Virus record (IMG/VR): IMGVR_UViG_3300048599_000435
Location: 1-64,000 of that record
Origin: a virus
DNA length: 64,000 nt
Direction: 5' to 3' (one strand)
Shown here: piece by piece, positions 8,468 to 59,064 of the stretch
Layout: each line of letters opens with the position of its first letter
Position numbering within the stretch: the stretch's first letter is position 1
The notes under the pieces: model-generated
Databases searched by the model: none
What the model was told of the DNA's origin: nothing
Seen by the model: the letters and a program-made list of their open reading frames with translations, nothing else
Position numbers and translations under genes: made by a program

Positions 8468-8946
8468 TGAACAACACCGACAACGGGGCGATCACGGAGG
8501 GCGGTGTGTGGGGCGGTGTCGCCGCCGCGATGGGCGGTGCCGTCCGCGCCATTCAGTCCCCTTCCGTTACCAAGCGGCAGTTCTGGACGACGGTGGTGAC
8601 GGCGACGTTTTTCGGGGTGGTGACCGGCTTCATCGTTATGTGGCTGTACTCGGACCGGGTGCCGCCGCACCTGGCCGCGTGTGCCGGGGCGGGGGTGGGC
8701 CTGTTCGTGTCTGAACTGATGAAGCTGCTGATGAAGGTTATGCAACGGGCGAGCGACCGATTGATCGACGGCGTGGACGCGAGACTGGACGCGGCCGGTT
8801 GGAAGGCGAACTCGCAGACCAAGACGGACATCAAATCGGATGTTAAACCGAGTCCGTCTGCGGTTTTGCAGGTTCCGCCGCCGCCGGCCGGAGGTGCAAA
8901 TGGATCCGACCCCACCGGACCGACCGACCGACCCGTCCGGCAGTGA
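8467..8946 (+). CDS. holin-like membrane protein
   Basis: Two or three predicted transmembrane helices (TTVVTATFFGVVTGFIVMWLY, ACAGAGVGLFVSELMKLLM) and a charged tail. Confidence 0.5.
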   Translation: MNNTDNGAITEGGVWGGVAAAMGGAVRAIQSPSVTKRQFWTTVVTATFFGVVTGFIVMWLYSDRVPPHLAACAGAGVGLFVSELMKLLMKVMQRASDRLIDGVDARLDAAGWKANSQTKTDIKSDVKPSPSAVLQVPPPPAGGANGSDPTGPTDRPVRQ

Positions 8947-9109
8947 CGGGTGGGGCGACCCGTCCAAGTTCCTGCTGGCGATGTTCCTTTGGGTGTCGGC
9001 GATGGTGGGGACGTGGCAGGGGTGCGAGGCGAGGCACGACCGGCGGCGGATCGACGAGCAGTTGCGGGAGATCAAGGCGCTCATCGAGGCGAAGCAGAGT
9101 TCAAAATGA
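8900..9109 (+). CDS. small single-pass membrane protein
   Basis: Trimmed to the ATG at 8900, preceded by GGAGG. Transmembrane segment FLLAMFLWVSAMVGTW, then a coiled C-terminus. Confidence 0.45.
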   Translation: MDPTPPDRPTDPSGSDGWGDPSKFLLAMFLWVSAMVGTWQGCEARHDRRRIDEQLREIKALIEAKQSSK

Positions 9110-9491: not shown

Positions 9492-9806
9492 GTGGCGGAC
9501 CCAGTGGGTGACGGCGCGGCCGATATCCCCCCGAAGGACTGCTGCTGCGACGCGCCGTTCCCGAGTCCGTGTACGGACGGGTCGCAGTACGTCCAGGTGT
9601 GGCCGTGCGTCGAGGGGGTGAAGGGCGACTGCTCGTGGTTCGACCTGTCGAGCCTGACTTTCGCCCCTACACCGGCAGCGGCGGCGGCCAAGAAGCCGTG
9701 CGGCGGCGGGGCGAACGCCTTCTCGGTGATGCAGGAGGCGGTGGCCAAGGGGTTCGGCCTTGATGACTTGAAGAAACTCGCGGTCACGTTGGACAAGTTG
9801 AAGTAG
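9474..9806 (+). CDS. Cys-rich small protein
   Basis: G/C-rich third codon positions; CCCDAPFPSPC..C..C. Start is uncertain (ATG 9474 or GTG 9492). Confidence 0.5.
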   Translation: MKPADHVADPVGDGAADIPPKDCCCDAPFPSPCTDGSQYVQVWPCVEGVKGDCSWFDLSSLTFAPTPAAAAAKKPCGGGANAFSVMQEAVAKGFGLDDLKKLAVTLDKLK

Positions 9807-9903
9807 TCGATGTCTTGTCCCGCATCGCCGGGTAGCTTATTGTAGCCGACGGAAATGTCGAAAGTCGCGGCCGATTTCCGGTACTGCTTTATAATATTGC
9901 AGA

Positions 9904-9927
9904 CCGGCCGTGCGGTGGAAGTCACGG
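9904..9927 (+). promoter_or_regulatory. conserved 25-nt motif, copy 1
   Basis: CCGGCCGTGCGGTGGAAGTCACGG, 32 nt before the ATG at 9960. Confidence 0.5.
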
Positions 9928-9959
9928 GTGTCAACTCGACTCGTAGAGAGGCAGCCAGT

Positions 9960-28505: not shown

Positions 28506-28532
28506 GTGCCAGTCTTTTCCTGCTGGCCCAGG
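28506..28532 (-). repeat. solitary CRISPR-repeat unit (SRU-a)
   Basis: 27 nt identical to the hairpin-containing 3' part of the array repeat, in the same orientation as the array. Confidence 0.6.
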
Positions 28533-28581: not shown

Positions 28582-29343
28582 TTACCGCAATGCCGCGTAC
28601 TCCATCGCCATTCGCAGGTCGCCATCCACTCGCCTGTAGACCTCGTCGTCCAGTTCTCGCTGGGTTGGTGTCGGCCGCTCGAACAGGTCGCCCCAGATCT
28701 CGGGCGGCAGTTCTTCCAATGAACAATTCCTGGTCGGAAATACGATAAATAGGTCAGCGAGTCTGTGGTCAGTAATCCTAATGTCCGTCGGCCGCATGGG
28801 CCACGAAACGTAGACGGGCGAGTCCGGCTCGTTCCACCGGCCGACGTGGAACGTCAGTTCCACATGCCTGTCTTCGTCTGTGGAGTACAGCGGCACCGGT
28901 TGCTGCACTTTGTACGGGCACACGATGGTGGTTTCGAGATCGCGAGACTCCGGGCGACGGAACACGACGAATGGTTCTCTTCGGTGCCGTCCGTCCATCT
29001 CTCTTGGCACGCACCTGACCTGCGGGAACAGGCGACCGGACGAACCTTTCAATCGGGAAAACTCAGGCGTATTCAGAGCGATAGCAGCCACACCAATCGG
29101 CGTCAGGTGTTTCAGTGATTGCTGTAGATTACCGGCGAATGCGTTGTTGAACGGGTGGAAGCTGACGAAGCGTGAGCGGATCATGCTCTTGGCCGTCTCG
29201 GTGTCTTCCGCCTTTCGCAGGCATTCGGCGAACGCCTCGTAGCCTTCCTCTTGGAAGTAGTCGGCGGCCACGAGCCAGGTCAGTCGGTTCGGGTTCTGGT
29301 CGATGCCGCGCAGCCACGACCGGATGTTGCTGTGGTCGATCAC
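28582..29343 (-). CDS. hypothetical protein with TIGR02996-like N-terminus
   Basis: LTWLVAADYFQEEGYE. GTGA overlap with the upstream gene. Confidence 0.55.
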   Translation of the reverse strand: MIDHSNIRSWLRGIDQNPNRLTWLVAADYFQEEGYEAFAECLRKAEDTETAKSMIRSRFVSFHPFNNAFAGNLQQSLKHLTPIGVAAIALNTPEFSRLKGSSGRLFPQVRCVPREMDGRHRREPFVVFRRPESRDLETTIVCPYKVQQPVPLYSTDEDRHVELTFHVGRWNEPDSPVYVSWPMRPTDIRITDHRLADLFIVFPTRNCSLEELPPEIWGDLFERPTPTQRELDDEVYRRVDGDLRMAMEYAALR

Positions 29344-32530: not shown

Positions 32531-33303
32531 GCGACATCCTCCGGCGGGTCCAGCCACTCGTCGGCGCTCTCGCGGATCACGGCCCAGTCGCCGATCTCGT
32601 CGCCAGACCAATCCACGTCGTCCAGGTCAACCCACTCCGCCTCACCGAACGGCTTGCCGATTTCTTCGCACGCCTGTTGTGGTCTGCCGAACAGGTGCGA
32701 CAGCAGTCCGCGATACGCCTCGGGCACGTTGTCCGGCTCGTCCTGCTCGTCCGGATCGTCCGACCAGTAAGTGTACCTTTCCATCCGCCGTAATCGGTTC
32801 ACGAGATCGGTGGCGAACACCCGCCAGTCGGTGTGGCACTGTGGGCCTTTCTCCCAATCGCCGTCCTCCCAGTACTGCATCGACCCGTCGGCGAACAGGA
32901 TGATCTGCTTGGTGTCGTGGTTGCCGAACGTCTCGGTCGAGGACGGGTTCAGGACGTCGACTTCCAGTTCCGAGTAGCACCACGAGCAGACCGCGTCCGG
33001 CACCAGGTCGCACGCATCCAGTCGCTCCCGGTCCCAGTCGCTGGGCAGCAGTTCGGCCAGCGACACCTTGAGGCCGAAGCCGGGTATGTACTCACGCCAT
33101 AGGCTCCGCAGCCGATCCGGCGTCACGGCCGTCCCCGCCGCCAGTCGTTCAAGTTCGAACTTGGCCAGCCCGACCGTCCGGCACCGCTCGGCCATCCGCT
33201 CCTCGCCGGCCTCCTGTAAGGCGTCGGCCAGGACCAGTCGAACGGCGTCGTTTTCGAGCGTGGCGGCGGCCAGCACCCGCACGTCTTCCGGCACGTCCGT
33301 CAT
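32527..33303 (-). CDS. hypothetical acidic protein
   Basis: Trimmed to the ATG at 33303; the track's N-terminal 111 aa are a translation of the CRISPR array. Confidence 0.6.
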   Translation of the reverse strand: MTDVPEDVRVLAAATLENDAVRLVLADALQEAGEERMAERCRTVGLAKFELERLAAGTAVTPDRLRSLWREYIPGFGLKVSLAELLPSDWDRERLDACDLVPDAVCSWCYSELEVDVLNPSSTETFGNHDTKQIILFADGSMQYWEDGDWEKGPQCHTDWRVFATDLVNRLRRMERYTYWSDDPDEQDEPDNVPEAYRGLLSHLFGRPQQACEEIGKPFGEAEWVDLDDVDWSGDEIGDWAVIRESADEWLDPPEDVA

Positions 33304-33371
33304 GGTGTCCTCCAGATACAGTTTATCACTGACCGTGTGGGCCGCAAGGTCGATAAAGCCTTCCAGTCGGG

Positions 33372-33848
33372 GTGCCAGTCTTTTCCTGCTGGCCCAGGTT
33401 GTTTGATACGCACGTGAGCCTCGGCACCCCGCCGAACTCGTCCGTGTGCCAGTCTTTTCCTGCTGGCCCAGGTTGTTTGACATGTCGGCGGGTGTCGGGA
33501 CGGTGGATATCGGGCCGGGGTGCCAGTCTTTTCCTGCTGGCCCAGGTTGTTTGATTGCGGCGCGTGAGCGTGGCCCAGTTGCCACCCAGGGCGTGCCAGT
33601 CTTTACCTGCTGGCCCAGGTTATTTGACGGTGTCACTTGGCACCGCCATTTTCGAGCCAGCGGTTGTGCCAGTCTTTTCCTGCCGGCCCAGGTTGTTTGA
33701 CGACTAGTGTCAGTAGCCCAGTGGCGTGGGCCAAGTCGCGTGCCAGTCTTTTCCTGCTGGCCCAGGCTGTTTGATGCTCAGGTTGTTTGACGTCGGTCTT
33801 GCGGATTCTGGGGGTGCCAGTATTTTCCTGCTGGCCCAGGTTGTTTGA
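33372..33848 (-). CRISPR. CRISPR array, 7 repeats (35-36 nt) with 38-39-nt spacers
   Basis: Repeats start at 33372, 33446, 33520, 33593, 33666, 33740 and 33814. Minus-strand repeat is TCAAACAACCTGGGCCAGCAGGAAAAGACTGGCAC, with a 3' hairpin GCCAG-N10-CTGGC. Confidence 0.85.
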
Positions 33849-33873
33849 TAGCAAAGGTCATAAACTATTACTG

Positions 33874-35703
33874 CTACACACTTTGCGGTATCGTCTGCGA
33901 GAGGGTCGCCTTCCGCCTCGGCTTGAGCAACGTCTTCTTCGGCTTCTTTTTCGTAACCGCTTGCCCAGCCTGGTCGTCAGGCGGGCGAGTGGGGTCGTCG
34001 GTATCGCCGTCATCGGGCCGCTCGGCGAGCATGGTCAGCAGGTTCAGGGCGGCGTTCTCGTCCTGATCCCACTCCGCGCCGCACGCCGTGCAGGTGTGGG
34101 TCAGGCGGCTGCGGTCGAACGTCTGGTCGGACCAGCAGGCGTGGCACCGGGAGGTGGTGCCGTGCGGGGCGAACTCGGCGACCGGGCAGCGGCCGTTCAT
34201 CCGCAGGCATTGTAGGAGCAGGCCGACGGCCGCCGCCCGCATGTACTCCTTCCTCGCCCGCGTCGGGTTGTCCTCTTCCGGCCGGTCGTCCCTGGCCATC
34301 CGGGCGACGGCCAGTTTCTCCACCGCCAGCCGGCCGTACCGACCGCCCATCTCGGCGGCGAACTTGCGGTAGACGTCCAGCCGGCGACGGATCGCCCGCC
34401 GGCCGCACGACACGAACGCCATCTCCAGTCGCACGTCCGCGTCCCGCCACTCCAGTAACTCGTTGTGGCGTGGCGCGATGTCGGCATCTTGTCCCGTGCC
34501 GTCGGGCGTCGTCAGTTCGTCCCACCGGGTCAACAGCGTGTGCAGCCGGTTGTACCCGCGCCACTGGCGGACAGTGGTGGTTGCCTCAAGGAACGCCTCC
34601 GGCAGCGACTCTCGCGAAGCGTCGATCCAGTCGGCCAGCCGGTCCCGCTCGGCGTTGAACAGCCGGTCCCGCTCGGCCTGGGCCTCCTCGCGGCGGGTCC
34701 ACAGGGCGAGCAGGTCGGGCGGCAGTGTCAGTTCGCCCCGGCCGCCCCGGTCGTCGGCCCAGCAGGCGACCCGGAGCGAGCCGTCCGGCCGCAGCCGCCA
34801 GCCGACGTCGATCCCGCACTTGCCGTCCTTGTCCTCGACGGGTCGGTCCGGCACGGAGACGACGAACTGGACTGACCAGTCGTCGTAGGCGGTCGGCGGC
34901 TCGTCCCGCCGCTTGCGGGTGTGCCACCCCTGCCGGCGAACCAGGTGTACCCACTTGACGGTGCCGCCTTCGGGCAGCGGCCGGTGCGCCTTCACCCGCA
35001 GCGTCGTCCAGACCGGACGCCCCCGGTCGGACGCCAGCCGCAGGTGAACCAGTTTGACGTTCGGGTGGCCGGGGATCGACTCGATCCGGACGCGGGTGTC
35101 CTCGCCGGCGTACACGTCGGCGGCCGACAGGCCGTTCTGGATCTGGGCGGACAGTCGGCCGTCGCGGTCCCAGCGGCGGAAGCGGACGGGGCCGAACGGT
35201 GTGGATGATGCCGCCCGTTCGGCCGCTTCGGCGAGGGCCAGCTTGGTCCCCCACCAGACGGCCGAGGCGTTGTACGCGGCCTTCTGCCGGGCGAAGTGGG
35301 CGGCCGTCTCGGCCTTCTGAGCGGCCTTCCATGCCGGCGTGGCGTGCAGGGCCTTCATGGCGGCCGACCGGGCCGCGTAGGCCAGTTTCAGTTTTGCCCT
35401 GGCGTCGAGGACGGCCATGCGGAGGTCTTCCGACGCCACCTCGGCCCGCTCGCGGCCCTTGTACGCCTGCACCTCGGCGACGGCCGCGTCCCGTTCGGCT
35501 TCCAGTCGGGACACGACCGCGTCGGCCTCGGCCAGTTCCGGCGACATGGCCCGGCGGATCGCGTCCAGGTTGGCCCGCTTCAGGTTCTCCAGTTCGACCA
35601 GCCCGTTGTAGTACCGGTGGGCCGAGTACATCCAGTCAGCCAGCCGCCGCTCTTGGTCGGCCGACATCCGATAGACGTGAAATGCGAACACTTTGGTAGG
35701 CAC
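33874..35703 (-). CDS. TnpB/Cas12-like RuvC nuclease (compact type V effector candidate, 609 aa)
   Basis: RuvC-I KCGIDVGWR, RuvC-II RLAVEKL, zinc finger CHAC..CTAC, RuvC-III DQDENAALNLL. TnpB-like N-terminus FAFHVYRMSADQERRL..YYNGLVE. The array starts 25 nt after its stop. Confidence 0.8.
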   Translation of the reverse strand: MPTKVFAFHVYRMSADQERRLADWMYSAHRYYNGLVELENLKRANLDAIRRAMSPELAEADAVVSRLEAERDAAVAEVQAYKGRERAEVASEDLRMAVLDARAKLKLAYAARSAAMKALHATPAWKAAQKAETAAHFARQKAAYNASAVWWGTKLALAEAAERAASSTPFGPVRFRRWDRDGRLSAQIQNGLSAADVYAGEDTRVRIESIPGHPNVKLVHLRLASDRGRPVWTTLRVKAHRPLPEGGTVKWVHLVRRQGWHTRKRRDEPPTAYDDWSVQFVVSVPDRPVEDKDGKCGIDVGWRLRPDGSLRVACWADDRGGRGELTLPPDLLALWTRREEAQAERDRLFNAERDRLADWIDASRESLPEAFLEATTTVRQWRGYNRLHTLLTRWDELTTPDGTGQDADIAPRHNELLEWRDADVRLEMAFVSCGRRAIRRRLDVYRKFAAEMGGRYGRLAVEKLAVARMARDDRPEEDNPTRARKEYMRAAAVGLLLQCLRMNGRCPVAEFAPHGTTSRCHACWSDQTFDRSRLTHTCTACGAEWDQDENAALNLLTMLAERPDDGDTDDPTRPPDDQAGQAVTKKKPKKTLLKPRRKATLSQTIPQSV

Positions 35704-35737
35704 TGGTTGATCCTTTGACTGGTGGCTGTGGATGCAG

Positions 35738-35762
35738 TCCGTGTCTTGCCCCGCACGGCCGG
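35738..35762 (-). promoter_or_regulatory. conserved 25-nt motif, copy in the cas12-like leader
   Basis: CCGGCCGTGCGGGGCAAGACACGGA, 34 nt before the GTG at 35703. Confidence 0.5.
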
Positions 35763-35789
35763 GTGTGTCAGCGGACCGGCACCAGATGA

Positions 35790-35887
35790 GTGCCAGTCTT
35801 TACCTGCTGGCCCAGGCTGTTCTGCCCTGGACGTGTGTCCGACCCACGGCACTTGCCGGTCTTCACCTGCCGGCCCAGGTGTCTTTA
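35790..35887 (-). CRISPR. promoter-proximal mini-array (2 degenerate repeats, one 28-nt spacer)
   Basis: Repeats at 35853-35887 and 35790-35824. The upstream one keeps the hairpin through a compensatory A-T to G-C change. Confidence 0.55.
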
Positions 35888-35892
35888 GCTGT

Positions 35893-35920
35893 ATTATACA
35901 CGTCTCCAATCGGGATGCAA
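35893..35920 (-). promoter_or_regulatory. sigma70-like promoter P1 (drives the mini-array, the cas12-like gene and the array)
   Basis: TTGCAT-CCCGATTGGAGACGTG-TATAAT with a 16-nt spacer. Confidence 0.6.
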
Positions 35921-35968
35921 GTCAAATGTCGTCACATTCACCCGGCACGTCGCCCCTGGACGAGCGTG

Positions 35969-36487
35969 TCATTGGTCGTCCCCGGCCGTGGTCATCGCGA
36001 TGGCGATCAGCCGCCGCTGGGCCGCCGGTCGCCTCATGACGGCGGCGAGCAATTGTTCCAGGGTTGCGGCGGCGAGTTTGGCGTCGGCGGTCTCGGTGGT
36101 CATGGCCTCGTCGAGGATCTGCTTGGCTCGCTGCTTGCTGACGCCCAGGGTGGCGGCCAGGTCGGCCCCGCACCCGCCGGCGGCGGCCACGGCGGCGACG
36201 GCCGCCTTCCGCCTGTCGGGGTCGAACCACCCCCGGCGGCGGTGACGGCTACAGGCCGGGTTCTCGCACAGCCGGCGGGTCTTATTCCTGTCGAACGCCT
36301 TCAGTTTGGCGGGCGTGACGAGGCCGACCTGGTCGGCGTGGCAGGTGTCACACCGGACGGCCCACAGGTATGAGCCGACGTCGCTCCTCTCGGCCGTCGG
36401 CCCGATCAGGGTGTACCCGCCGATCGACTTGCCCCGGTAGGTTTCCGTCGTGTACGGGCCGGTCAGGTGCCCCTTGGTGCGTCCCAT
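35969..36487 (-). CDS. putative DNA-binding protein
   Basis: CENPACSRH zinc-like motif plus an HTH-like ATLGVSKQRAKQILDEA. Confidence 0.5.
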   Translation of the reverse strand: MGRTKGHLTGPYTTETYRGKSIGGYTLIGPTAERSDVGSYLWAVRCDTCHADQVGLVTPAKLKAFDRNKTRRLCENPACSRHRRRGWFDPDRRKAAVAAVAAAGGCGADLAATLGVSKQRAKQILDEAMTTETADAKLAAATLEQLLAAVMRRPAAQRRLIAIAMTTAGDDQ

Positions 36488-36667
36488 TCAGTCGGCCCTC
36501 CCCGGTTCTACTTCGGTGTACAGTTTGAACCACACCACGTTCCCCGTCTCGTCCCGGCACTCGGCCTCTTTCTTGCCCTTCCGCAGCACGGTCCACAGGT
36601 TCTTGTCGCCGGGCCGGCGGAAGGTGTCGTTCTTTTTTAGGTCGGCCAGCGTCTTCACGGATGTCAT
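36488..36667 (-). CDS. hypothetical protein (59 aa, not in ORF track)
   Basis: MTSVKTLADLKKNDTFRRPGDKNLW... with G/C-rich third codon positions. ATGA overlap upstream, and its TGA abuts the next ATG. Confidence 0.5.
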   Translation of the reverse strand: MTSVKTLADLKKNDTFRRPGDKNLWTVLRKGKKEAECRDETGNVVWFKLYTEVEPGRAD

Positions 36668-36750
36668 TCGTCCTCGTCCTCCTCCTCGGTGGGTTCCAGG
36701 TCCGTCTCGTCGAACTCCGGGTCTTCGTCGTCGTCGAACGGGTCACGCAT
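36664..36750 (-). CDS. 28-aa acidic micro-ORF
   Basis: MRDPFDDDEDPEFDETDLEPTEEEDEDE. Its start overlaps the stop of the upstream gene. Confidence 0.3.
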   Translation of the reverse strand: MRDPFDDDEDPEFDETDLEPTEEEDEDE

Positions 36751-37126
36751 TGTCGTCCTCCTCGGGGTGAAGTTTACACGGGTCCGTCAGCCAGTCGTCC
36801 CGCTGCTCCGGGGTGGCCGCCACCCACCGGCTCAGCAGCCCCATCCGCTCCTTGATGGTCCCCCAAAAACTTTGGGCTTCGTTGACGATGAGCCAATCCT
36901 CGTTGATAGCACAGTTCGCCTGACTCTTCTTGTTTGACCTCCACGGCCAGTACCCGTCGCTTCCCATGCCGTCGTTGACCCCCACCTGGCCGTTCTCGGC
37001 CAGCCACGCCAGCGGCTCCCATCGCGGGTCGCCACGCTCTTGCAGGAAGTCGGCGAACGCGCTCATCGTGACCGTGCAGTTCGGGTTCGCCGTCATCGCC
37101 GCCACCCAGTCGGCTTCCTCCATCAT
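36743..37126 (-). CDS. short TIGR02996-like protein
   Basis: MSAFADFLQERGDPRWEPLAWLAENG. Confidence 0.6.
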   Translation of the reverse strand: MMEEADWVAAMTANPNCTVTMSAFADFLQERGDPRWEPLAWLAENGQVGVNDGMGSDGYWPWRSNKKSQANCAINEDWLIVNEAQSFWGTIKERMGLLSRWVAATPEQRDDWLTDPCKLHPEEDDNA

Positions 37127-37181
37127 GTGGTCGTCCTCGGGGGCGGGGAGTGGGCGGTCCTCCCCGGATGTCGCTCGCCGG

Positions 37182-37598
37182 TTACGGGGCGTTGTCGCCC
37201 AGGTAGACGCGGAACGTGACCGGGTCTTGGTTGAAGTTGTTCTTGACGCCGGGGTAGGCGCTGTTGCCGGGCACCCACGCCTTCTCCGGCATGGCCCACG
37301 AGGTGCCGCCGGGCACGATCAGGTACGCGCGGACGAACCACTCGGTGCTCTGCGGGTTGGCCCGGCTGAGCAGCGCCCACGACTCCGACCCGTCCGGGTG
37401 CGTCTCGCTGAACTCGTGCCGGGTGCCGGCGTCGTTGCTGCTGACCAGCATGACCCGCCGGCCGACGGCGTCGGTGCCGCCGTTCCACTCGACCTCGACC
37501 CAGAACGGGGCCGGCAGGGCGGGGGCCGCGTCGCCCGGCAGGCAGGCCGCGATCGCCGCCGTCACCGCCATGACCGCCACCGCAATCGTCTTCGTCAT
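37182..37598 (-). CDS. putative lipoprotein
   Basis: Trimmed to MTKTIAVAVMAVTAAIAAC (a lipobox-like signal). Confidence 0.6.
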   Translation of the reverse strand: MTKTIAVAVMAVTAAIAACLPGDAAPALPAPFWVEVEWNGGTDAVGRRVMLVSSNDAGTRHEFSETHPDGSESWALLSRANPQSTEWFVRAYLIVPGGTSWAMPEKAWVPGNSAYPGVKNNFNQDPVTFRVYLGDNAP

Positions 37599-37831
37599 CG
37601 GGAGTCCTCGGAGTGTGTGCCGGCGGGATCGCCGGGTGCCGCCACGACGGGGTCGCGGTTCGACCCCGCCTGTTCCTGTTTTGTATCGCCTTCCCCGTCC
37701 GCCCGCCCGCCCCGGAGTTGTTCCAGTCGCTTCGTCAGGGCGGCGATGTACTTCTCGTTGCCGCACCCTTCAGCCGTGCGGAGGGCCTGTTCCAGCCCCG
37801 CTATCACCTCGGCCCGTTCCTCGACTGTCAT
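37595..37831 (-). CDS. hypothetical protein
   Basis: Trimmed to an ATGA-coupled ATG. Confidence 0.5.
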   Translation of the reverse strand: MTVEERAEVIAGLEQALRTAEGCGNEKYIAALTKRLEQLRGGRADGEGDTKQEQAGSNRDPVVAAPGDPAGTHSEDSR

Positions 37832-38256
37832 GATTGCACCTTGGATACTTGTGTAACCCGCTTGGCCGGCGCGTCGGCGTCCTCGATCCATACGGTCATC
37901 TTCGCGTCGATCAGGTGGGCGACCGGGACGCCGAAGAACTCGTCGATCTTGGTGGCCCATTCGGCGATCTTCTTCTTGCTGATGCGACTACCTTCTTGCA
38001 GGTTGATGCGTCCTCCTCTGGCATAACTGAGGCATCGCCACTCCCGGTCGCCATCACTTACGAGCAGGATGTTGCCGGGAACGTAGTGCTTTCCACGATT
38101 GTTGTAGGTGCCGCCTGGGACGATCCACATCTCCATGTCGCCGTACTTGACCAGCACCCGCGTCGGCGGACTGCCCCGCCGGTCGATGCCAGGGTGCGGG
38201 TGCGTGCTGGCGTGTCGGGTCATCTGGCTGAGCACTCGGGTCACGACCTTCTTCAT
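37828..38256 (-). CDS. hypothetical protein
   Basis: 142-aa ORF of balanced composition. Confidence 0.55.
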   Translation of the reverse strand: MKKVVTRVLSQMTRHASTHPHPGIDRRGSPPTRVLVKYGDMEMWIVPGGTYNNRGKHYVPGNILLVSDGDREWRCLSYARGGRINLQEGSRISKKKIAEWATKIDEFFGVPVAHLIDAKMTVWIEDADAPAKRVTQVSKVQS

Positions 38257-38381
38257 CACTTGTCCCCCACGAGTTTGTTGACCGCATCGGTCAGGAATGG
38301 GCTGTGCTGTTCACAGCACGCCTGTTGCTCGTGCCGGTATTGACCTGCTGGCCCAGGCCGTGGAGTACGATCCTGATTCAT
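38256..38381 (-). CDS. 41-aa micro-ORF containing a CRISPR-repeat-like sequence
   Basis: Starts 2 nt after the upstream stop and ends overlapping the next start. Its RPGPAGQY stretch is encoded by the repeat-like unit. Confidence 0.3.
   Translation of the reverse strand: MNQDRTPRPGPAGQYRHEQQACCEQHSPFLTDAVNKLVGDK
38331..38364 (-). repeat. degenerate solitary CRISPR-repeat unit (SRU-b)
   Basis: Plus-strand GTGCCgGTatTgaCCTGCTGGCCCAGGccGTgGA compared with the array repeat. Confidence 0.5.
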
Positions 38382-38382
38382 G

Positions 38383-38796
38383 TCACTCCCCTGGAAAGAG
38401 GATGAACGTGCCGCCCAGGACCGGCGACGGGCGGCACCAGATCCCCGGCAGCCGACCGTCGGCCACCACCCACGCCGGGAGTGGGTGCGGCGTGTGGGCA
38501 CACCGGCTGCCGATCCCTCGCAGCGGCACACTGTTTGCCAGCAGGCCGTCGATCACGTCCCACTCGCCCGCGTCCAGGTGCAGCAGGTGCTCGCCCTCGA
38601 ACCGGGCGGCCCTGCCGTTGTTGTCGCCCTCGCCATCGTCGGCACTCTCGTCGTCCGGGTCGGTCATGCACTCGGCCCACCAGTCGCGGATGTCGTCGAT
38701 GTCGGCGGCGGGTTGGTCGGCGGTTTGACTCGTCGGCATGTCAGGTTCCTTTGGTCGTTGTCGTTGGTCACTCGTGGTAGAAGGCCGTCGCGTCAC
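38383..38796 (-). CDS. hypothetical acidic protein
   Basis: GTGA-coupled start at 38796; ATG at 38739 is an alternative. Confidence 0.5.
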   Translation of the reverse strand: MTRRPSTTSDQRQRPKEPDMPTSQTADQPAADIDDIRDWWAECMTDPDDESADDGEGDNNGRAARFEGEHLLHLDAGEWDVIDGLLANSVPLRGIGSRCAHTPHPLPAWVVADGRLPGIWCRPSPVLGGTFILFPGE

Positions 38797-39077
38797 GGCC
38801 CCAGGTTGGTGTCGGTGCCGGACAGCGAGTCGAGGAACAGGTCGGCCTGCGTGGGCGTGGCCGTCTCCGGCTTTGACAGCCTGCGAAAGAATACCAGCAT
38901 GAACGACATCAGTTTTTCGTGGGCGACGGCCCCGGCGGAGTAGGCGGCCTGGAGTTTGTCGTGGTCACGCAACAAGTCACACCACTTAAGCCGTTCGACG
39001 TTTTTCGCGGCGGCCTGGAAATCGGCGTCCAGCCTGCGGAACTCGGCCATCTCTTCCGGCGTCACTTCGACTCGCAT
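38793..39077 (-). CDS. hypothetical protein
   Basis: TGATG-coupled ATG. Confidence 0.5.
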   Translation of the reverse strand: MRVEVTPEEMAEFRRLDADFQAAAKNVERLKWCDLLRDHDKLQAAYSAGAVAHEKLMSFMLVFFRRLSKPETATPTQADLFLDSLSGTDTNLGP

Positions 39078-39310
39078 CAGTCGTCCCCCTTGGCGGCTTG
39101 AACGAGGCGGTTGATCTTGATCACGGTGTTGGTGATCAGTTTGGCCAACTCGTCCCAGTTCTCCAACTCGGCCCCCTGGCCGTCGATGACAGCCCCGTCC
39201 GTGTTGACGCTGATGCCGTGCCAAGTGACTTCGTCAACGCTTTCCAAGGTCAGTTCGTCTTCCACGTCGTCCTCCTCTTCGGTGTCTCGGGTTTCCCAGT
39301 TCGGTAGCAT
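39077..39310 (-). CDS. hypothetical acidic protein
   Basis: TGATG-coupled ATG. Confidence 0.5.
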   Translation of the reverse strand: MLPNWETRDTEEEDDVEDELTLESVDEVTWHGISVNTDGAVIDGQGAELENWDELAKLITNTVIKINRLVQAAKGDD

Positions 39311-39582
39311 CACTTGCCCTCCGTTGTTTCGTCCACGTCGATCAGGCTTGGCATCAGTTGTCGCAGGTCGAAGCCGATGTCCGAGTTGAGCGTCAGGGCG
39401 ATGTCGTTCATCTTCCACGCCCTCTTGAGTTGCTGCACGACATGGGACTGTTCGCCGATCACGTCGGCCAGAAGCTTGGTGGCCCACTCCAGAAGCGAGG
39501 CGGTGTCGGACAGGCACGCCTGCTGTCCGTCCAAGTTGTCCAGAATCTTGGCCAGCAGGTCGGCGGCGGTCTCGGTCGGCAT
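39310..39582 (-). CDS. hypothetical protein
   Basis: TGATG-coupled ATG. Confidence 0.5.
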   Translation of the reverse strand: MPTETAADLLAKILDNLDGQQACLSDTASLLEWATKLLADVIGEQSHVVQQLKRAWKMNDIALTLNSDIGFDLRQLMPSLIDVDETTEGK

Positions 39583-39971
39583 CACTTGGCCTCCGGGTCG
39601 AGTACGGCCAGCCACTCGGCCGGCACCTGTTCGCGGCTCACTTCGGTGCAGGCGGCGAACTCGCTGCCGCAGATCCAGTCGGTGATGACCGATGACAGGT
39701 CGCCGGTCCTGCGGGCGAACCGGCACATGTGGTTGTGGCCGTTGTCCACTAATCCGGTGTCGTACAGGTAGCCGCCGACCTTCTCGCGGAAGTAGCGTGG
39801 CGTCTGCCGGCGGAAGCGGACCTCCACGTCTTTCGTCTTGCAGTCGTAGGCGTCGGCCAGTTGGTTTCCCGCCCCGTCGTTCAGTGTGGCGCGGAGGGTG
39901 ACGTAGGGGCCGATGAGGTCGGTCCCCTCCGGCACCTCGAACTCGATCTCCACGGTGGCCCGGACGATCAT
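39582..39971 (-). CDS. hypothetical protein
   Basis: 129 aa; ATGA overlap upstream. Confidence 0.55.
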   Translation of the reverse strand: MIVRATVEIEFEVPEGTDLIGPYVTLRATLNDGAGNQLADAYDCKTKDVEVRFRRQTPRYFREKVGGYLYDTGLVDNGHNHMCRFARRTGDLSSVITDWICGSEFAACTEVSREQVPAEWLAVLDPEAK

Positions 39972-40519
39972 GACTGGTTATCCTCAGCCTTCATTTCGAT
40001 GATCTCCTCCATAGCCGCGAGGTCTTCGCCGATGGCGATGTTGTCGAGCAGGACTTGCTCGAACGAATCGCCGCCCAGGAACTCGTCCCCGGCGTACAGG
40101 GCGTCGGCCAGTTCGCGGCGATCCCAGCCCAGCCGCTCGGCCAGTTCCGCCACCCGCCGCACGTCGTCCGTGTCTGCCAGTTCGTACCGCAGGCTCCGGC
40201 ACGCCGATTCAAAATGGCCCAGCCACGAGGACACCACTTCGTTCGCCTTCCCACCCGCCCCGTGCCGCCCTTCATACCCGTCCGTCGAGTCGAGCAGGAA
40301 TCGGGCGATTGTCTGGGTTGCGAGATAGAAGTCGCCGCCCTTCGCCCGCGTTTCGGCCATCTCCCGTTTCAGGATTTCTCGCACTTCGTCGATGGTCATT
40401 CCGCTGTCCTCCGGTGTTGTGTCCCACTTGTTCCGCCGCTTGGCCACGGCCGTCGGCCACAGTTCCGGCGGCGTGCTCCAGCCGGGGCCGCTGTACTCGA
40501 CGTTGTTCAAGGTGGCCAT
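39968..40519 (-). CDS. hypothetical protein
   Basis: 183-aa ORF of balanced composition. Confidence 0.6.
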   Translation of the reverse strand: MATLNNVEYSGPGWSTPPELWPTAVAKRRNKWDTTPEDSGMTIDEVREILKREMAETRAKGGDFYLATQTIARFLLDSTDGYEGRHGAGGKANEVVSSWLGHFESACRSLRYELADTDDVRRVAELAERLGWDRRELADALYAGDEFLGGDSFEQVLLDNIAIGEDLAAMEEIIEMKAEDNQS

Positions 40520-40520
40520 G

Positions 40521-41012
40521 TCACTCGTCCTGTACCGGGATGAACACTTCGTAGACGACGTCGCCCGTATGGGTTCCGGCCACGCACCCCCACTTCTGCC
40601 GGTGCATGGTTAGTGGCTGGCCCGGCTCAGGCAGGTCCGGCAGACGGCACGTCACTTCCGCCCATCCGCCGCCCCGCCCGCAAAGCTGGATCGTCGTGCC
40701 GAACGTGTTGAAGGCGTGCCCCGGCCGGGCGAGGCGGACGGCGACCACGTTGACCCCCGGCCGGCCGAACGCCACCTCGACCGATTCCACCAGCGGACGG
40801 TCGGGGTCACCCTCGGTAATCTTGAACATTGCCTTTCTGGTGTCCGCCGCTTCTTGCTGCTCGGCTTCGTTCAGTGCGTTCCACGCCTGGGCGATCCGTT
40901 CGGCGGTCTCGTCGGGCATGTTGGTGTCGGTGATGTCGAGTATCCGCCGTCGCGGGTGACTCGCCTCGGTGATGAAGTCGCCGTCGATGATCCAGTTTCG
41001 GTGTCTGCTCAC
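40521..41012 (-). CDS. hypothetical protein
   Basis: 163 aa; GTGA-coupled start. Confidence 0.6.
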   Translation of the reverse strand: MSRHRNWIIDGDFITEASHPRRRILDITDTNMPDETAERIAQAWNALNEAEQQEAADTRKAMFKITEGDPDRPLVESVEVAFGRPGVNVVAVRLARPGHAFNTFGTTIQLCGRGGGWAEVTCRLPDLPEPGQPLTMHRQKWGCVAGTHTGDVVYEVFIPVQDE

Positions 41013-41200
41013 TTCTTCGCCTCCCGTGCTTCCTTGATGGCCGCCGCCCCGAGTTTCGCGAGGAACTGGTTCAATTCTTCTCTGGCCTGGTCGAGCCGTT
41101 CGTCCAGCGGGTGGTAGTGCGTGTTGTAGTCATGCAACGCCTTCCGCAGGGCCGCGTCGAGGCGGTCGTACTCGGCCAGTTGTTCCTGATTGACGGTCAT
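41009..41200 (-). CDS. hypothetical coiled-coil protein
   Basis: TGATG-coupled ATG. Confidence 0.5.
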   Translation of the reverse strand: MTVNQEQLAEYDRLDAALRKALHDYNTHYHPLDERLDQAREELNQFLAKLGAAAIKEAREAKK

Positions 41201-41367
41201 CACTTGGCACCCCCGATGAGCAGGATGTAGGCGGCGATGGCGAGCAGGCCGACAAGGTTAAGGACGGCGTACCAGTCTTGTCCTGCTGGCCCAGGTTGTT
41301 CGATGACTGTGGCACTCACGGCCGGGTGCGGCCGGTCCTCGAAGTCGGGCAGGTCTTCGTCTTGCAT
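41200..41367 (-). CDS. 55-aa membrane micro-protein containing a CRISPR-repeat-like sequence
   Basis: ATG lies 8 nt after GGAGG. C-terminal transmembrane helix VLNLVGLLAIAAYILLIGG. Its EQPGPAGQDWY stretch is encoded by the repeat-like unit. Confidence 0.35.
   Translation of the reverse strand: MQDEDLPDFEDRPHPAVSATVIEQPGPAGQDWYAVLNLVGLLAIAAYILLIGGAK
41269..41303 (-). repeat. solitary CRISPR-repeat unit (SRU-c)
   Basis: Plus-strand GTaCCAGTCTTgTCCTGCTGGCCCAGGTTGTTcGA: 32 of 35 positions match the array repeat. Confidence 0.55.
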
Positions 41368-41442
41368 CCGTCTGTCCTCCGTTTGGGGCAAGAGGGGAGT
41401 AAACTGCTACTCCCCTCGGCGTCGGTCGGATCACTCGTCGTC

Positions 41443-42408
41443 TTAGACCGGGCCGGTGTAGCCGTAGATGATGTCGTTCCCGTCGGCCCACGGCGGGCAG
41501 CACAGGACCGCGTACCCGGTCGTCGTTTCGCCGTCCTCGTCGTCGGCCGTCCAGTACACCAGGCCGACCGTGTCGCGGTCGCTGTCCGGGACCATCGCCT
41601 TGGCGGTCTCGAACAGTTCGACGGCTTCGACCGGCGGGTTGCGGGGTTCCTTCCAGCCCGGCAGGTTCGACCCGTCGAACTGCCAGCCGGGGTACTCGGC
41701 GGCCAGCCGCTCGTCGTGGTAGACGGCCTTGCACTCCCACCCGTTCGCCACGCACGCCCTAAGGCGGTCGCTGCCGTTCGCCTCGGCCCACGCCGCCACC
41801 TCCTTCGCCTCGCGGTCGGCATCGGCCTGACGCTCGGCCTTCGACGCCGCGTCCCGTTCGGCCGCCAGTCGCTTCCGCTCGGCCTCTTCAAGCTCTTTGG
41901 CCTTTTCCTTGGCGGCGGCCTCGCCTTTGAAGTGGGCCGTCTGCACGCCGAGTTCGGCCATCAGCGCGGCGACGTCGGCGGCACCGGCCGACCCGTCGGT
42001 GAACGGCCGCAGCAGGTCGGCCGGCACCATGAACCCGGCGGTCGACCCGTGCCCAAATTCGCCGGGTCGACTGTTCAGGTTCCCGGAACACCAGTAGGTG
42101 AACTCGTAACAGCCGCCCTTCGTGCCGGTCTTCACCACGAGGTCGGCGTCGTCGTTGAGCATCCAGAACAGTGCCCGGCAGATCGGCTCGTCGGAGTCGG
42201 CCGCGTACTTCACCCGCACCTCTCTGGTGGGGGCCGGCGGCAGCCCGTGGGCCACGCGGAAGTCCACGGCGGCGAGGCCGTCGGCCGGGCAGTCTTTGAC
42301 CTTCAAGCTGATGTCGATGTCCACTTTGAACACGGTCCGTACTCCTGGCACCACCTCGGTGCCGTTCACCCCGTCGGCCGGCGGACCTCCCGCCGTTGCT
42401 CGACCCAC
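41443..42408 (-). CDS. hypothetical protein (central coiled coil)
   Basis: About 310 aa. Start is uncertain (GTG at 42408, or GTG at 42369 coupled to a 24-aa leader ORF). Confidence 0.55.
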   Translation of the reverse strand: MGRATAGGPPADGVNGTEVVPGVRTVFKVDIDISLKVKDCPADGLAAVDFRVAHGLPPAPTREVRVKYAADSDEPICRALFWMLNDDADLVVKTGTKGGCYEFTYWCSGNLNSRPGEFGHGSTAGFMVPADLLRPFTDGSAGAADVAALMAELGVQTAHFKGEAAAKEKAKELEEAERKRLAAERDAASKAERQADADREAKEVAAWAEANGSDRLRACVANGWECKAVYHDERLAAEYPGWQFDGSNLPGWKEPRNPPVEAVELFETAKAMVPDSDRDTVGLVYWTADDEDGETTTGYAVLCCPPWADGNDIIYGYTGPV

Positions 42409-42511
42409 GCCGCGTGAAGGCCGGGTGTGTGGTGGGTCATTCCGTCGTCACTGTCCTCCGCTTGGGGTAGTTGGTACTATTCACTGATCCAGCCAGCGAG
42501 GTCGTCCTGCC

Positions 42512-58033: not shown

Positions 58034-58260
58034 TGCAGCCCCCGGATCGTCTTGGCCGCGTCCCACAGGGCAGAAGCGGCGGCAGTGCGGGTCGCATCGG
58101 CCGGCTTGGAAATCAACGAGACGGCTTCCGCCTCGCACGCCTTCGCGCACCGTTCCCGCTCCCGACAGAGAAGTTCATCCACCACCTCGTGGGACGAGTC
58201 GTCCGGCGGGCCGATGTATTTATGTAACTCTTCCACCGTCCACTCGCTCAGCGGTTTCAT
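58030..58260 (-). CDS. hypothetical protein
   Basis: ATGA-coupled ATG. Confidence 0.5.
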   Translation of the reverse strand: MKPLSEWTVEELHKYIGPPDDSSHEVVDELLCRERERCAKACEAEAVSLISKPADATRTAAASALWDAAKTIRGLQ

Positions 58261-58580
58261 TCCAGGCACTCCGGTGGAACGCACACTGACTGAAGGATCT
58301 GCCGCCTCAGAGACTCGACCTGCTCGACAATGTCCGACACCGGGCCGTCCCACCTGACCGGAACCACCGCCGGTGCCGGCTGGACGATCTGCTCCGCCGC
58401 GTCCAGCCACGCCTGGGCCGCCGTGTTGCCGCGACCGTAGTAATTGCCTGGCCGACGATACCGGTAGGCGACCTCCCAGCTTCGCCGATCCGGCGTGCCG
58501 CACGGGTGTCGCCGGTAACAGATCGCCATCGGATCGACGGACAGGAGGGACGCCTTCGCGTCACTCGGCACGTCGGTCAT
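58257..58580 (-). CDS. hypothetical protein
   Basis: ATGA-coupled ATG. Confidence 0.5.
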   Translation of the reverse strand: MTDVPSDAKASLLSVDPMAICYRRHPCGTPDRRSWEVAYRYRRPGNYYGRGNTAAQAWLDAAEQIVQPAPAVVPVRWDGPVSDIVEQVESLRRQILQSVCVPPECLE

Positions 58581-58804
58581 TCGACCTCCCGTGGCGGAAC
58601 CCACCCGCACCACGCACAGGATCCGGTCGAGACCGCCGGTGCCCAGTTCTCCCGGCCGCAGCGGCCGCACTTCTGAAGGTAAACCGTGTCCCGGACCGAG
58701 AACCCGATGTACCGGCCGTCGTGGTACATGGGAACACCCTTTTCGTCGTCGGCCTTGCCGCCCTGGTTGCCGTCCGCACCGACCTCGGCCTTGTCAGTAG
58801 CCAT
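58577..58804 (-). CDS. hypothetical zinc-ribbon protein
   Basis: CGRCG..CAWCG. Confidence 0.55.
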   Translation of the reverse strand: MATDKAEVGADGNQGGKADDEKGVPMYHDGRYIGFSVRDTVYLQKCGRCGRENWAPAVSTGSCAWCGWVPPREVE

Positions 58805-58991
58805 CACGCCTCCAGTCCTCGGAACACGCTCTCGTGCCAGTGTTAGCCTGCCGGCCTAGGCTTTCCGACCGCCACTTCCGTCTCGCCATGTGCCACCGCA
58901 TAGCGCTGGCGAACCACTCCCACCGGCCGCCAAACTCGCCCAGGCGATCCGCAAGAACGCAACCACCGAAAGTGACGGCCGGACGGCTCAT
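58794..58991 (-). pseudogene. truncated paralog of the C-terminal domain of 61725..62405
   Basis: LADRLGEFGGRWEWFASAMRWHM aligns with LADRLDEVGEKWKWVSYAFRWCM. The reading frame then runs into SRU-d. Confidence 0.3.
58834..58866 (-). repeat. degenerate solitary CRISPR-repeat unit (SRU-d)
   Basis: Plus-strand GTGCCAGTgTTagCCTGCcGGCCtAGGcTTTcc. The hairpin is kept with one G-U pair. Confidence 0.45.
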
Positions 58992-59064
58992 GGCCGGGTT
59001 CGAGCCGACACCTTCAGTGGTTAGAATCCCGACGGACTACCTTTATCCAACGACAGCGATCGAG

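Follow-up and report, generated by a model that had tools for sequence, protein, structure and literature searches.

Judged by sequence, positions 38331-38357 on the minus strand of this phage genome contain a true solitary copy of the crRNA scaffold of the phage-encoded Cas12m, in mildly degenerate form; it lies within a 41-codon micro-ORF (38256-38381, minus strand) that takes up the entire interval separating two early genes. The likeliest reading, to which we assign a probability of roughly 45%, is that of a dual-use sequence, a putative Cas12m binding or processing site inside a translationally coupled micro-ORF. The original prediction had offered recruitment of a CRISPR repeat into coding sequence and an intergenic RNA element as alternatives; the evidence favours both at once, not either alone. 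The case for an RNA element draws on the copy's retention of the repeat portion gripped by Cas12m and on its membership in a family of sense-oriented copies that keep their fold; the case for coding draws on a gene-like, coupled reading frame, and on the recurrence of in-frame copies elsewhere in the genome and in both relative lineages. The window analysed here, 64 kb in length, is the first part of a complete phage record of 109,753 bp with direct terminal repeats and a G+C content of 65%; near-identical sequence is present in marine metagenome DNA runs, and a search for RNA runs with the phage found none.

The phage encodes its own type V-M CRISPR locus. A 609-aa gene (33874-35703, minus strand) aligns over residues 18-558 with a solved Cas12m structure (PDB 23vw_A, E 4.6e-39), and more weakly with Cas12m2; it carries a Cas12f1-like TNB domain (zinc ribbon; PF07282), and its D, E, and D residues line up with the three RuvC motifs, which identifies the gene product as Cas12m. 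The CRISPR array, with seven repeats of 36 nt and spacers of 37-38 nt, adjoins the 3' side of cas12m on the same strand (33372-33849). Since the array also follows cas12m on the same strand in two relatives, and every gene between 28.6 and 42.4 kb is encoded on the minus strand, the repeat RNA is read in the minus sense; the strand given in the original prediction is corrected in this respect, with array, copy, and all flanking genes transcribed in the minus sense.

Read in this direction, the 36-nt repeat forms a stem between positions -27 to -24 and -17 to -14, and a pseudoknot between -22 to -18 and -7 to -3; it also shows G(-23), A(-2), and C(-1), with nine 5' nucleotides outside the scaffold. 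This is the layout of the Cas12m2 crRNA, in which the 5' 9 nt are dispensable, disordered, and upstream of the processing site, while stem, pseudoknot helix, and the same three bases G(-23), A(-2), and C(-1) make up the remainder (PMC10442227). The likeness extends to type V-M repeats in general (Cas12m2, GoCas12m, MsCas12m), which share the 36-nt length, the stem and pseudoknot in the 3' 27 nt, and the G(-23)/A(-2)/C(-1) signature, together with independence of a tracrRNA, processing of the pre-crRNA by the effector upstream of the scaffold, and an effector whose structures align with the 609-aa protein. Cas12m binds its own scaffold without a tracrRNA, and the pre-crRNA is cut inside the repeat upstream of the scaffold (PMC11013384, PMC10442227). 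The element at 38331 differs from type V-M arrays in being solitary, without the 5' part of the repeat and without a spacer-repeat partner, and in lying inside an mRNA and an ORF.

The copy matches the scaffold portion of the repeat (positions -27 to -1) in 23 of 27 bases, and a covariance model trained on the six distinct array-repeat sequences alone recovers this minus-strand stretch (38331-38357) over model positions 10-36, with a score of 23.7 bits and a genome-wide E of 2.6e-4. The 14-mer core is unbroken at 38344-38357, as originally noted; this core occurs 12 times in the window, on a single strand, against 0.04 expected occurrences, and 13 times on one strand of the whole genome with none on the opposite strand. 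Chance similarity to the repeat, for which nothing speaks except the shortness of the element, is refuted by the 23/27 identity, the array-only E-value, and the excess of core matches, and its probability is negligible. The original extent of 38331-38364 does not hold at the upper end; the copy ends at 38357, and 38358-38366, the place of the repeat's 5' 9 nt, is unconserved and unrelated to the repeat. A search of the window with Rfam at gathering thresholds gave no match.

The copy is among the most diverged of all scaffold copies, with four substitutions in its 27 nt, at -13, -12, -9, and -6. The changes at -13 and -12, in combination with bases -29 and -28, lengthen stem 1 from four to six pairs, and the change at -9 falls in the loop; the change at -6 produces an A(-19) x C(-6) mismatch that leaves the pseudoknot with four of five pairs and is uncompensated. 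A mismatch had been predicted, and one is indeed present, located in the pseudoknot helix and not in the stem. The same A x C mismatch recurs in a copy at 92838, and in a copy at 35853 the change A(-19)G compensates for it. All four pairs of stem 1 are retained at 38331, as are G(-23), A(-2), and C(-1). The copy has no adjacent repeat and is not part of a repeat-spacer array; its distance from cas12m is 2.6 kb, and from the array 4.5 kb.

Sequence and covariance searches assign this copy to a genome-wide family of solitary scaffolds, about 11 in number. Seven are strong matches, all on the minus strand (28506, 35790, 35853, 38331, 41269, 58834, and 92838); a weaker one at 70900 shares this strand, and three further weak copies, at 83293, 85563, and 102946, are on the plus strand within plus-strand gene blocks; every copy thus runs in the sense direction of the gene block around it. 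Nine of the 11 lie outside gene calls, in the 13% of the genome that is uncovered by a crude, self-made gene map (binomial p 5e-7). Their settings vary: a perfect 27-nt scaffold (28506-28532) is situated at a convergent gene junction, 20 nt from the convergent gene's stop; two copies (35790 and 35853) form a mini-array (35790-35888) in the cas12m leader, just 3' of a TATAAT box; a 22/27 copy (58834-58860) occupies a 394-nt gap, with GGAGG and an ATG about 18-30 nt downstream; and in-frame copies are found inside ORFs at 41.3, 70.9, and 102.9 kb.

The divergence among the seven strong copies is unevenly distributed. In the 5' 9 nt, 35 of 63 positions differ from the repeat (56%), compared to 20 of 189 in the whole scaffold (Fisher test, p 2e-12); within the scaffold, the loop accounts for 12 differences in 42 positions (29%) and the paired and recognition bases for 8 in 147 (5%; p 1e-4). 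Over the alignment, 86.7% of cells pair, compared to 13-41% when the partner columns are slid. Stem 1 is extended in four copies, including the one at 38331, by four different base pairs; the pseudoknot is kept with different bases in the weak copies at 70900 and 102946, and at 70900 this is also the case for stem 1. The divergence pattern, the pairing excess, and the compensatory changes point to selection for the RNA fold gripped by Cas12m, against neutral decay; the scattering of such copies suggests that Cas12m may act on the phage's own mRNAs as well.

Comparable families of solitary copies exist in other Cas12m-encoding phages. The nearest Cas12m (P0002, 57% identity) is encoded on a 50.7-kb metagenome contig, L021, which has many genes in common with the phage at 40-76% identity. 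The L021 repeat has the same layout in a different sequence, with five of five pseudoknot pairs made of other bases. Among its solitary copies, a pair precedes cas12m, another pair follows the next gene, and further ones lie at 8895 and 15252; those before cas12m and one at a convergent junction, 21 nt from the convergent gene's stop, are positional matches to copies of this phage, the latter to the copy at 28506. Degenerate L021 copies keep the pseudoknot, and a stem-1 U:A pair is replaced by C:G. The copies at 9880 and 15252 run in the same scaffold frame within called genes, and the copy at 8895 lies within a 27-codon ORF that overlaps the next gene at ATGA. In the more distant G001, whose Cas12m is 31% identical, 26 copies of its own scaffold are all found on the cas12m strand; about 15 of these are solitary and dispersed over 176 kb, at least eight lie 4-22 nt upstream of a start codon, and one is in frame inside a 531-aa ORF. 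In these three phage lineages the solitary copies match each phage's own repeat, and this tracking of the cognate array repeat links them in function to the cognate Cas12m.

The individual copy at 38331 is lineage-specific, judging from a comparison that is based on one usable relative. None of the collections searched contained a close relative of the phage; a megablast of 33300-42500 against phages gave no match, searches for related loci with the two flanking proteins and with 28582-29343 gave no result, and the flanking proteins had no match in G001 or G002. The upstream early gene (38383-38796, minus strand; a likely start yields 118 aa, 38383-38739) has homologs in L021 (45% identity) and in L025 and L026 (60%). 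In L021 this homolog is followed at once by the next gene, with no gap and no copy of the 38331 type; in L025 and L026 it is followed by a 122-nt gap without such a scaffold and without an end-to-end ORF, and then by an unrelated gene. Synteny with L021 and L025 breaks at the micro-ORF gap. The original prediction had held that absence from related phages would mean chance similarity; this rule fails here, since the copy is absent from L021 and L025 and its repeat match is far beyond chance.

The absence of a counterpart in L021 and L025 would also suit a relic, that is, a tolerated but functionless, decaying by-product of repeat-mediated recombination, or of an ectopic insertion (36 nt and therefore frame-neutral) in a small gene that is itself real. 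The emergence and decay of ectopic repeats near CRISPR loci have been described (PMC10120712), the four substitutions at 38331 include the uncompensated pseudoknot mismatch, and in the micro-ORF frame the repeat amounts to an innocuous stretch of Pro, Gly, Ala, and Gln. Decay in the family is not uniform, however, given the 56% divergence in the 5' 9 nt against 5% in the paired bases; the -13 and -12 changes lengthen stem 1 and do not break it; and the uniformly sense orientation of the copies is not predicted by neutral insertion. We regard such an origin without present function as unlikely.

The micro-ORF that contains the scaffold is tightly joined to its neighbors, as had been predicted from the 126-nt gap that reads as a 41-aa frame. 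At its 5' junction, the upstream TGA (38385-38383) is separated by a single C from the ATG at 38381 (TGA-C-ATG), with an SD-like GGGGAG (38391-38386) at a spacing of 4 nt from this ATG; at its 3' junction, the micro-ORF TGA (38258-38256) overlaps the ATG (38256-38254) of the downstream gene in the motif TGATG. This downstream early gene (37828-38256, minus strand) encodes an ORFan of 142 aa and has an SD sequence of its own (GGGGGA, 38268-38263); a homolog search returned only the gene itself. Among 45 same-strand gaps of at least 40 nt, an ORF spans the full length of only three, and among the 18 that measure at least 100 nt the micro-ORF gap is the sole case. The scaffold translates as PGPAGQYRH, and the PGPAGQ frame is, as the original prediction stated, also used at 41.3 kb, where a sister copy (41269-41304, minus strand; 32 of 36 bases) lies in frame within a 55-aa membrane-type ORF called by IMG (41200-41367, minus strand); here, the flanks of the scaffold are gene-like, with likelihood ratios of 17 and 24.

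Within the micro-ORF, the coding signal is concentrated in the 24 codons 3' of the scaffold. With GC1, GC2, and GC3 of 0.67, 0.33, and 0.75, this segment scores 0.44 per codon, a value at the 31st percentile of gene windows that 3.4% of open windows in other gaps attain (likelihood ratio about 9); these coding statistics are based on a crude, self-trained gene map. The ATG at 38381 is the only possible start in the gap, and the frame has none after the scaffold; if the 24-codon segment is translated, the scaffold must be translated with it. The micro-ORF probably behaves as a genuine, translationally coupled small gene, and there are good grounds to expect that it is translated.

A purely non-coding alternative would see in the gap an intergenic spacer with a Cas12m scaffold and a hairpin, crossed by a fortuitous and untranslated open frame. 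All three reading frames of the phage's 36-nt repeat are open, as seen in the repeat sequence and in the translations around its copies, and ORFs therefore pass through copies easily. For the micro-ORF as a whole, GC3 is 0.60, compared to 0.8-0.9 in genes, and the score falls at the 7th percentile of gene windows; the codon usage of its repeat-derived part is not gene-like, and codons 1-5 are rare and A/T-ending. An exact-sequence look-up in the gene-call collection did not find the micro-ORF among the source's gene calls, and the peptide had no homologs among 1.84 billion representatives, a search of low power at 41 aa. The downstream gene's own SD, the strong hairpin inside the ORF, and the intergenic position of most other copies are consistent with this alternative as well. 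Its difficulty lies in an end-to-end ORF with TGA-C-ATG and TGATG junctions that is found in one of 18 long same-strand gaps, in the coding-type GC1/GC2/GC3 values and score of the 24 3' codons, and in the position of the frame's sole possible start at 38381. On balance, a non-coding gap appears unlikely, and translation of the scaffold-bearing frame is preferred.

Being co-oriented with the minus-strand genes, the copy should be carried on the early polycistronic mRNA; this expectation follows from its location in the same minus-strand block as cas12m and from the lack of a promoter-like site nearby, as a promoter scan of 37600-39000 found none, and a single terminator-like site was at chance level. 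The local fold of a 161-nt region was not more stable than those of shuffled sequences. Within the micro-ORF, a 9-bp hairpin with a UGAA loop (38300-38322, minus strand) starts 9 nt after the scaffold; at -13.7 kcal/mol (z -3.6), it was not equaled by any of 200 shuffles, and it may influence RNA ends or stability.

The hairpin also bears on the possibility that the scaffold and the sequence following it give rise to a crRNA-like RNA that steers Cas12m to a phage or host promoter, in the manner of CreR or crlRNA, or to the homologous gene of a competitor phage. Such a guide would be in keeping with the published action of Cas12m, which silences through DNA binding (PMC11013384, PMC10442227), and with known mini-arrays acting as regulators of cas genes (PMC10120712); a mini-array is also present in this phage, in the cas12m leader. 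Yet the stable hairpin covers guide positions 9-31 and makes the downstream sequence less likely to be a guide, and a search of the phage's own genome with the 40 nt that follow the scaffold gave no second match above chance level (best match 13 nt with one mismatch, E 9.6). The pseudo-spacers of all solitary copies likewise gave chance-level matches only against the phage genome. Queries with the array against phage and plasmid collections in distant mode found no match, yielding neither a target class nor a PAM, and a search of viral, metagenome, and genome contigs with the repeat pattern found no close relative or target. A guide function at 38331 is accordingly improbable, and a site of action on the transcript itself is preferred.

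Known systems with repeats outside arrays provide partial precedents. Viral single CRISPR-repeat mimics (Racrs) work as RNA by binding Cas proteins; they mimic host repeats, and are usually promoter-proximal small RNAs unlinked to cas genes (Camara-Wilpert et al., 2023, PMC10651486). The copy at 38331 resembles them in being a lone repeat, apart from any array, in a viral genome, and can be likened to a solitary repeat unit; it differs from Racrs in lacking host mimicry, a promoter of its own, and the absence of linked cas genes. A decoy role, in which the copies would soak up a host-encoded type V-M effector, could be envisioned from the solitary repeat units that serve as phage RNA anti-CRISPRs against types I-C, I-E, I-F, and V-A (PMC10651486). 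Against this, the cognate Cas12m and array are encoded by the phage itself, and the copies, numerous, sense-oriented, operon-embedded, and in some cases within ORFs, match the repeat of their own phage in three lineages; no promoter-like site lies near the 38331 copy, which is within an operon and an ORF, unlike promoter-proximal, cas-unlinked solitary repeat units; and the repeat pattern is absent from a bacterial genome set of 185,579 species. A decoy for a host effector is therefore a very remote prospect. CreA/CreR, crlRNA, and scaRNA are degenerate repeats outside arrays that have been exapted for regulation; such elements are found within CRISPR-cas loci and target DNA via a spacer with partial complementarity to a promoter (PMC10120712). 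The mini-array in the cas12m leader of this phage fits this class; the copy at 38331 differs in having no detectable target in the phage genome and in its location outside the cas locus, and its likeliest action would be on its own RNA.

How a dual-use site might operate can be outlined from the published biochemistry of Cas12m. The cas12m gene lies 2.6 kb downstream within the same block of genes; its product would bind the RNA site at 38331 and may cut just 5' of the scaffold, in the manner of pre-crRNA processing, and the self-processing of Cas12m pre-crRNA (PMC11013384, PMC10442227) makes it plausible that the early transcript is processed in a Cas12-dependent way. Since the 5' 9 nt do not match those of the repeat, cleavage is less certain than binding. 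Translation would require the ribosome to melt the pseudoknot, and the 609-aa protein, once bound, would stand in the ribosome's way; owing to this mutual hindrance, Cas12m binding and translation of the micro-ORF are expected to compete. Through the TGATG coupling, the outcome would be handed on to the downstream gene (37828-38256), so that a rising level of Cas12m would be expected to alter the translation or stability of this coupled gene. In a wider and more tentative scheme, for which the odds are clearly below even, the phage Cas12m could additionally recognize RNA by sequence and structure, acting through dispersed handles on a regulon of the phage's own mRNAs; copies in 5' leaders would occlude starts, in-frame copies within small coupled ORFs such as 38256-38381 would act as ribosome/Cas12m switches, and the level of Cas12m would time the downstream early genes.

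Solitary CRISPR repeats have known roles as decoys against host immunity and as DNA-targeting regulators beside cas genes; in this case, the handle of a Cas12m encoded by the phage itself recurs across the phage transcripts, invariably in the sense orientation and with its fold kept by compensatory change, and some copies, including the one at 38331, overlap sequence that is probably translated. Processing sites of Cas12a and Csy4 have been engineered into polycistronic and coding mRNAs, where they let the Cas protein cut or bind; those sites are artificial, whereas the phage case would be a natural one, with Cas12m. If Cas12m binds these sites, a natural class 2 CRISPR effector would serve as a post-transcriptional regulator of a viral gene program, and one and the same sequence would be under constraint at two levels, that of a peptide and that of an RNA pseudoknot bound by a protein; such elements could then provide compact, orthogonal RNA tags for Cas12m-based control. 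A literature search found no description of Cas12m handles dispersed in phage transcripts or within ORFs.

For variation at this locus, contigs from four marine DNA runs (X1-X4) were compared over 37700-41500. Apparent joints near 41304 in these contigs are due to cross-mapping of array contigs, and the idea that scaffolds serve as recombination boundaries for module exchange was set aside, as no joints or other support were found. Contigs of the three runs that span the element (X1, X2, and X4) are identical over 38243-38650.

The contig L021, a 50.7-kb metagenomic relative of the phage with a Cas12m 57% identical, contains a 27-codon ORF (8878-8961) that lies in a 127-nt gap and reads through a degenerate copy (8895-8921) of the scaffold, the 27-nt 3' part of the CRISPR repeat. 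The stop codon of this ORF overlaps the start of the gene that follows (ATGA). Its architecture is the same as that of the 41-codon micro-ORF at 38256-38381 in the phage, but the scaffold is read in a different frame. In the same contig, the 68-aa gene immediately before cas12m (9736-9956) runs across copy one of the mini-array in the leader and terminates at the TAG that lies within copy two.

In the cas12m leader of the phage itself, a promoter-like element (TTGACT ... TATAAT; 35889-35930, minus strand) ends approximately 4 nt ahead of the first degenerate repeat unit; given this spacing, the transcript start predicted from the sequence would fall inside the dispensable 5' 9 nt of the repeat, a few nucleotides ahead of the scaffold. 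Further along this leader, the scaffold copy at 35790 is followed by a pseudo-spacer whose distal part contains the GC-rich motif CCCGGCCGTGCGGG (35738-35762, minus strand), which recurs exactly at four further sites on the plus strand of the phage genome, near 11856, 12958, 15264, and 67403. The scaffold copy at 58834 is followed on its 3' side by GGAGG and then by an ATG from which the gene at 58257-58670 probably starts, further upstream than called; approximately 115 nt upstream of this copy lies a weak tRNA-like match (58985-59057, minus strand; 20.9 bits, E 0.08).

Beyond the window, the complete phage record (G000) carries a structured-RNA cluster on the plus strand at 83088-83982 (289-1183 of the extracted locus L019). 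The cluster includes tRNA-Phe and tRNA-Met, a DUF3800-VI RNA motif that scores above its gathering threshold (45.2 bits), and a YrlA-like Y RNA that scores below its own (44.3 bits, E 3e-8). Directly after a tRNA-like T-arm, and oriented like these RNAs, lies a weak copy of the Cas12m scaffold (83293-83327, plus strand). Within the CRISPR array, the spacer at 33408-33445 has an 18-nt match with one mismatch to the phage's own genome (88642-88659; E 0.01); a DNA-binding Cas12m might thus have a partial target in its own genome here, or the match may be due to chance. Finally, the distantly related 176-kb phage G001 has a second array (positions 1-411 and 175767-175872 of G001; L011) with a variant of the repeat and a period of approximately 74-78 nt; this array extends off both contig ends, which suggests that the G001 record is circularly permuted or incompletely assembled.
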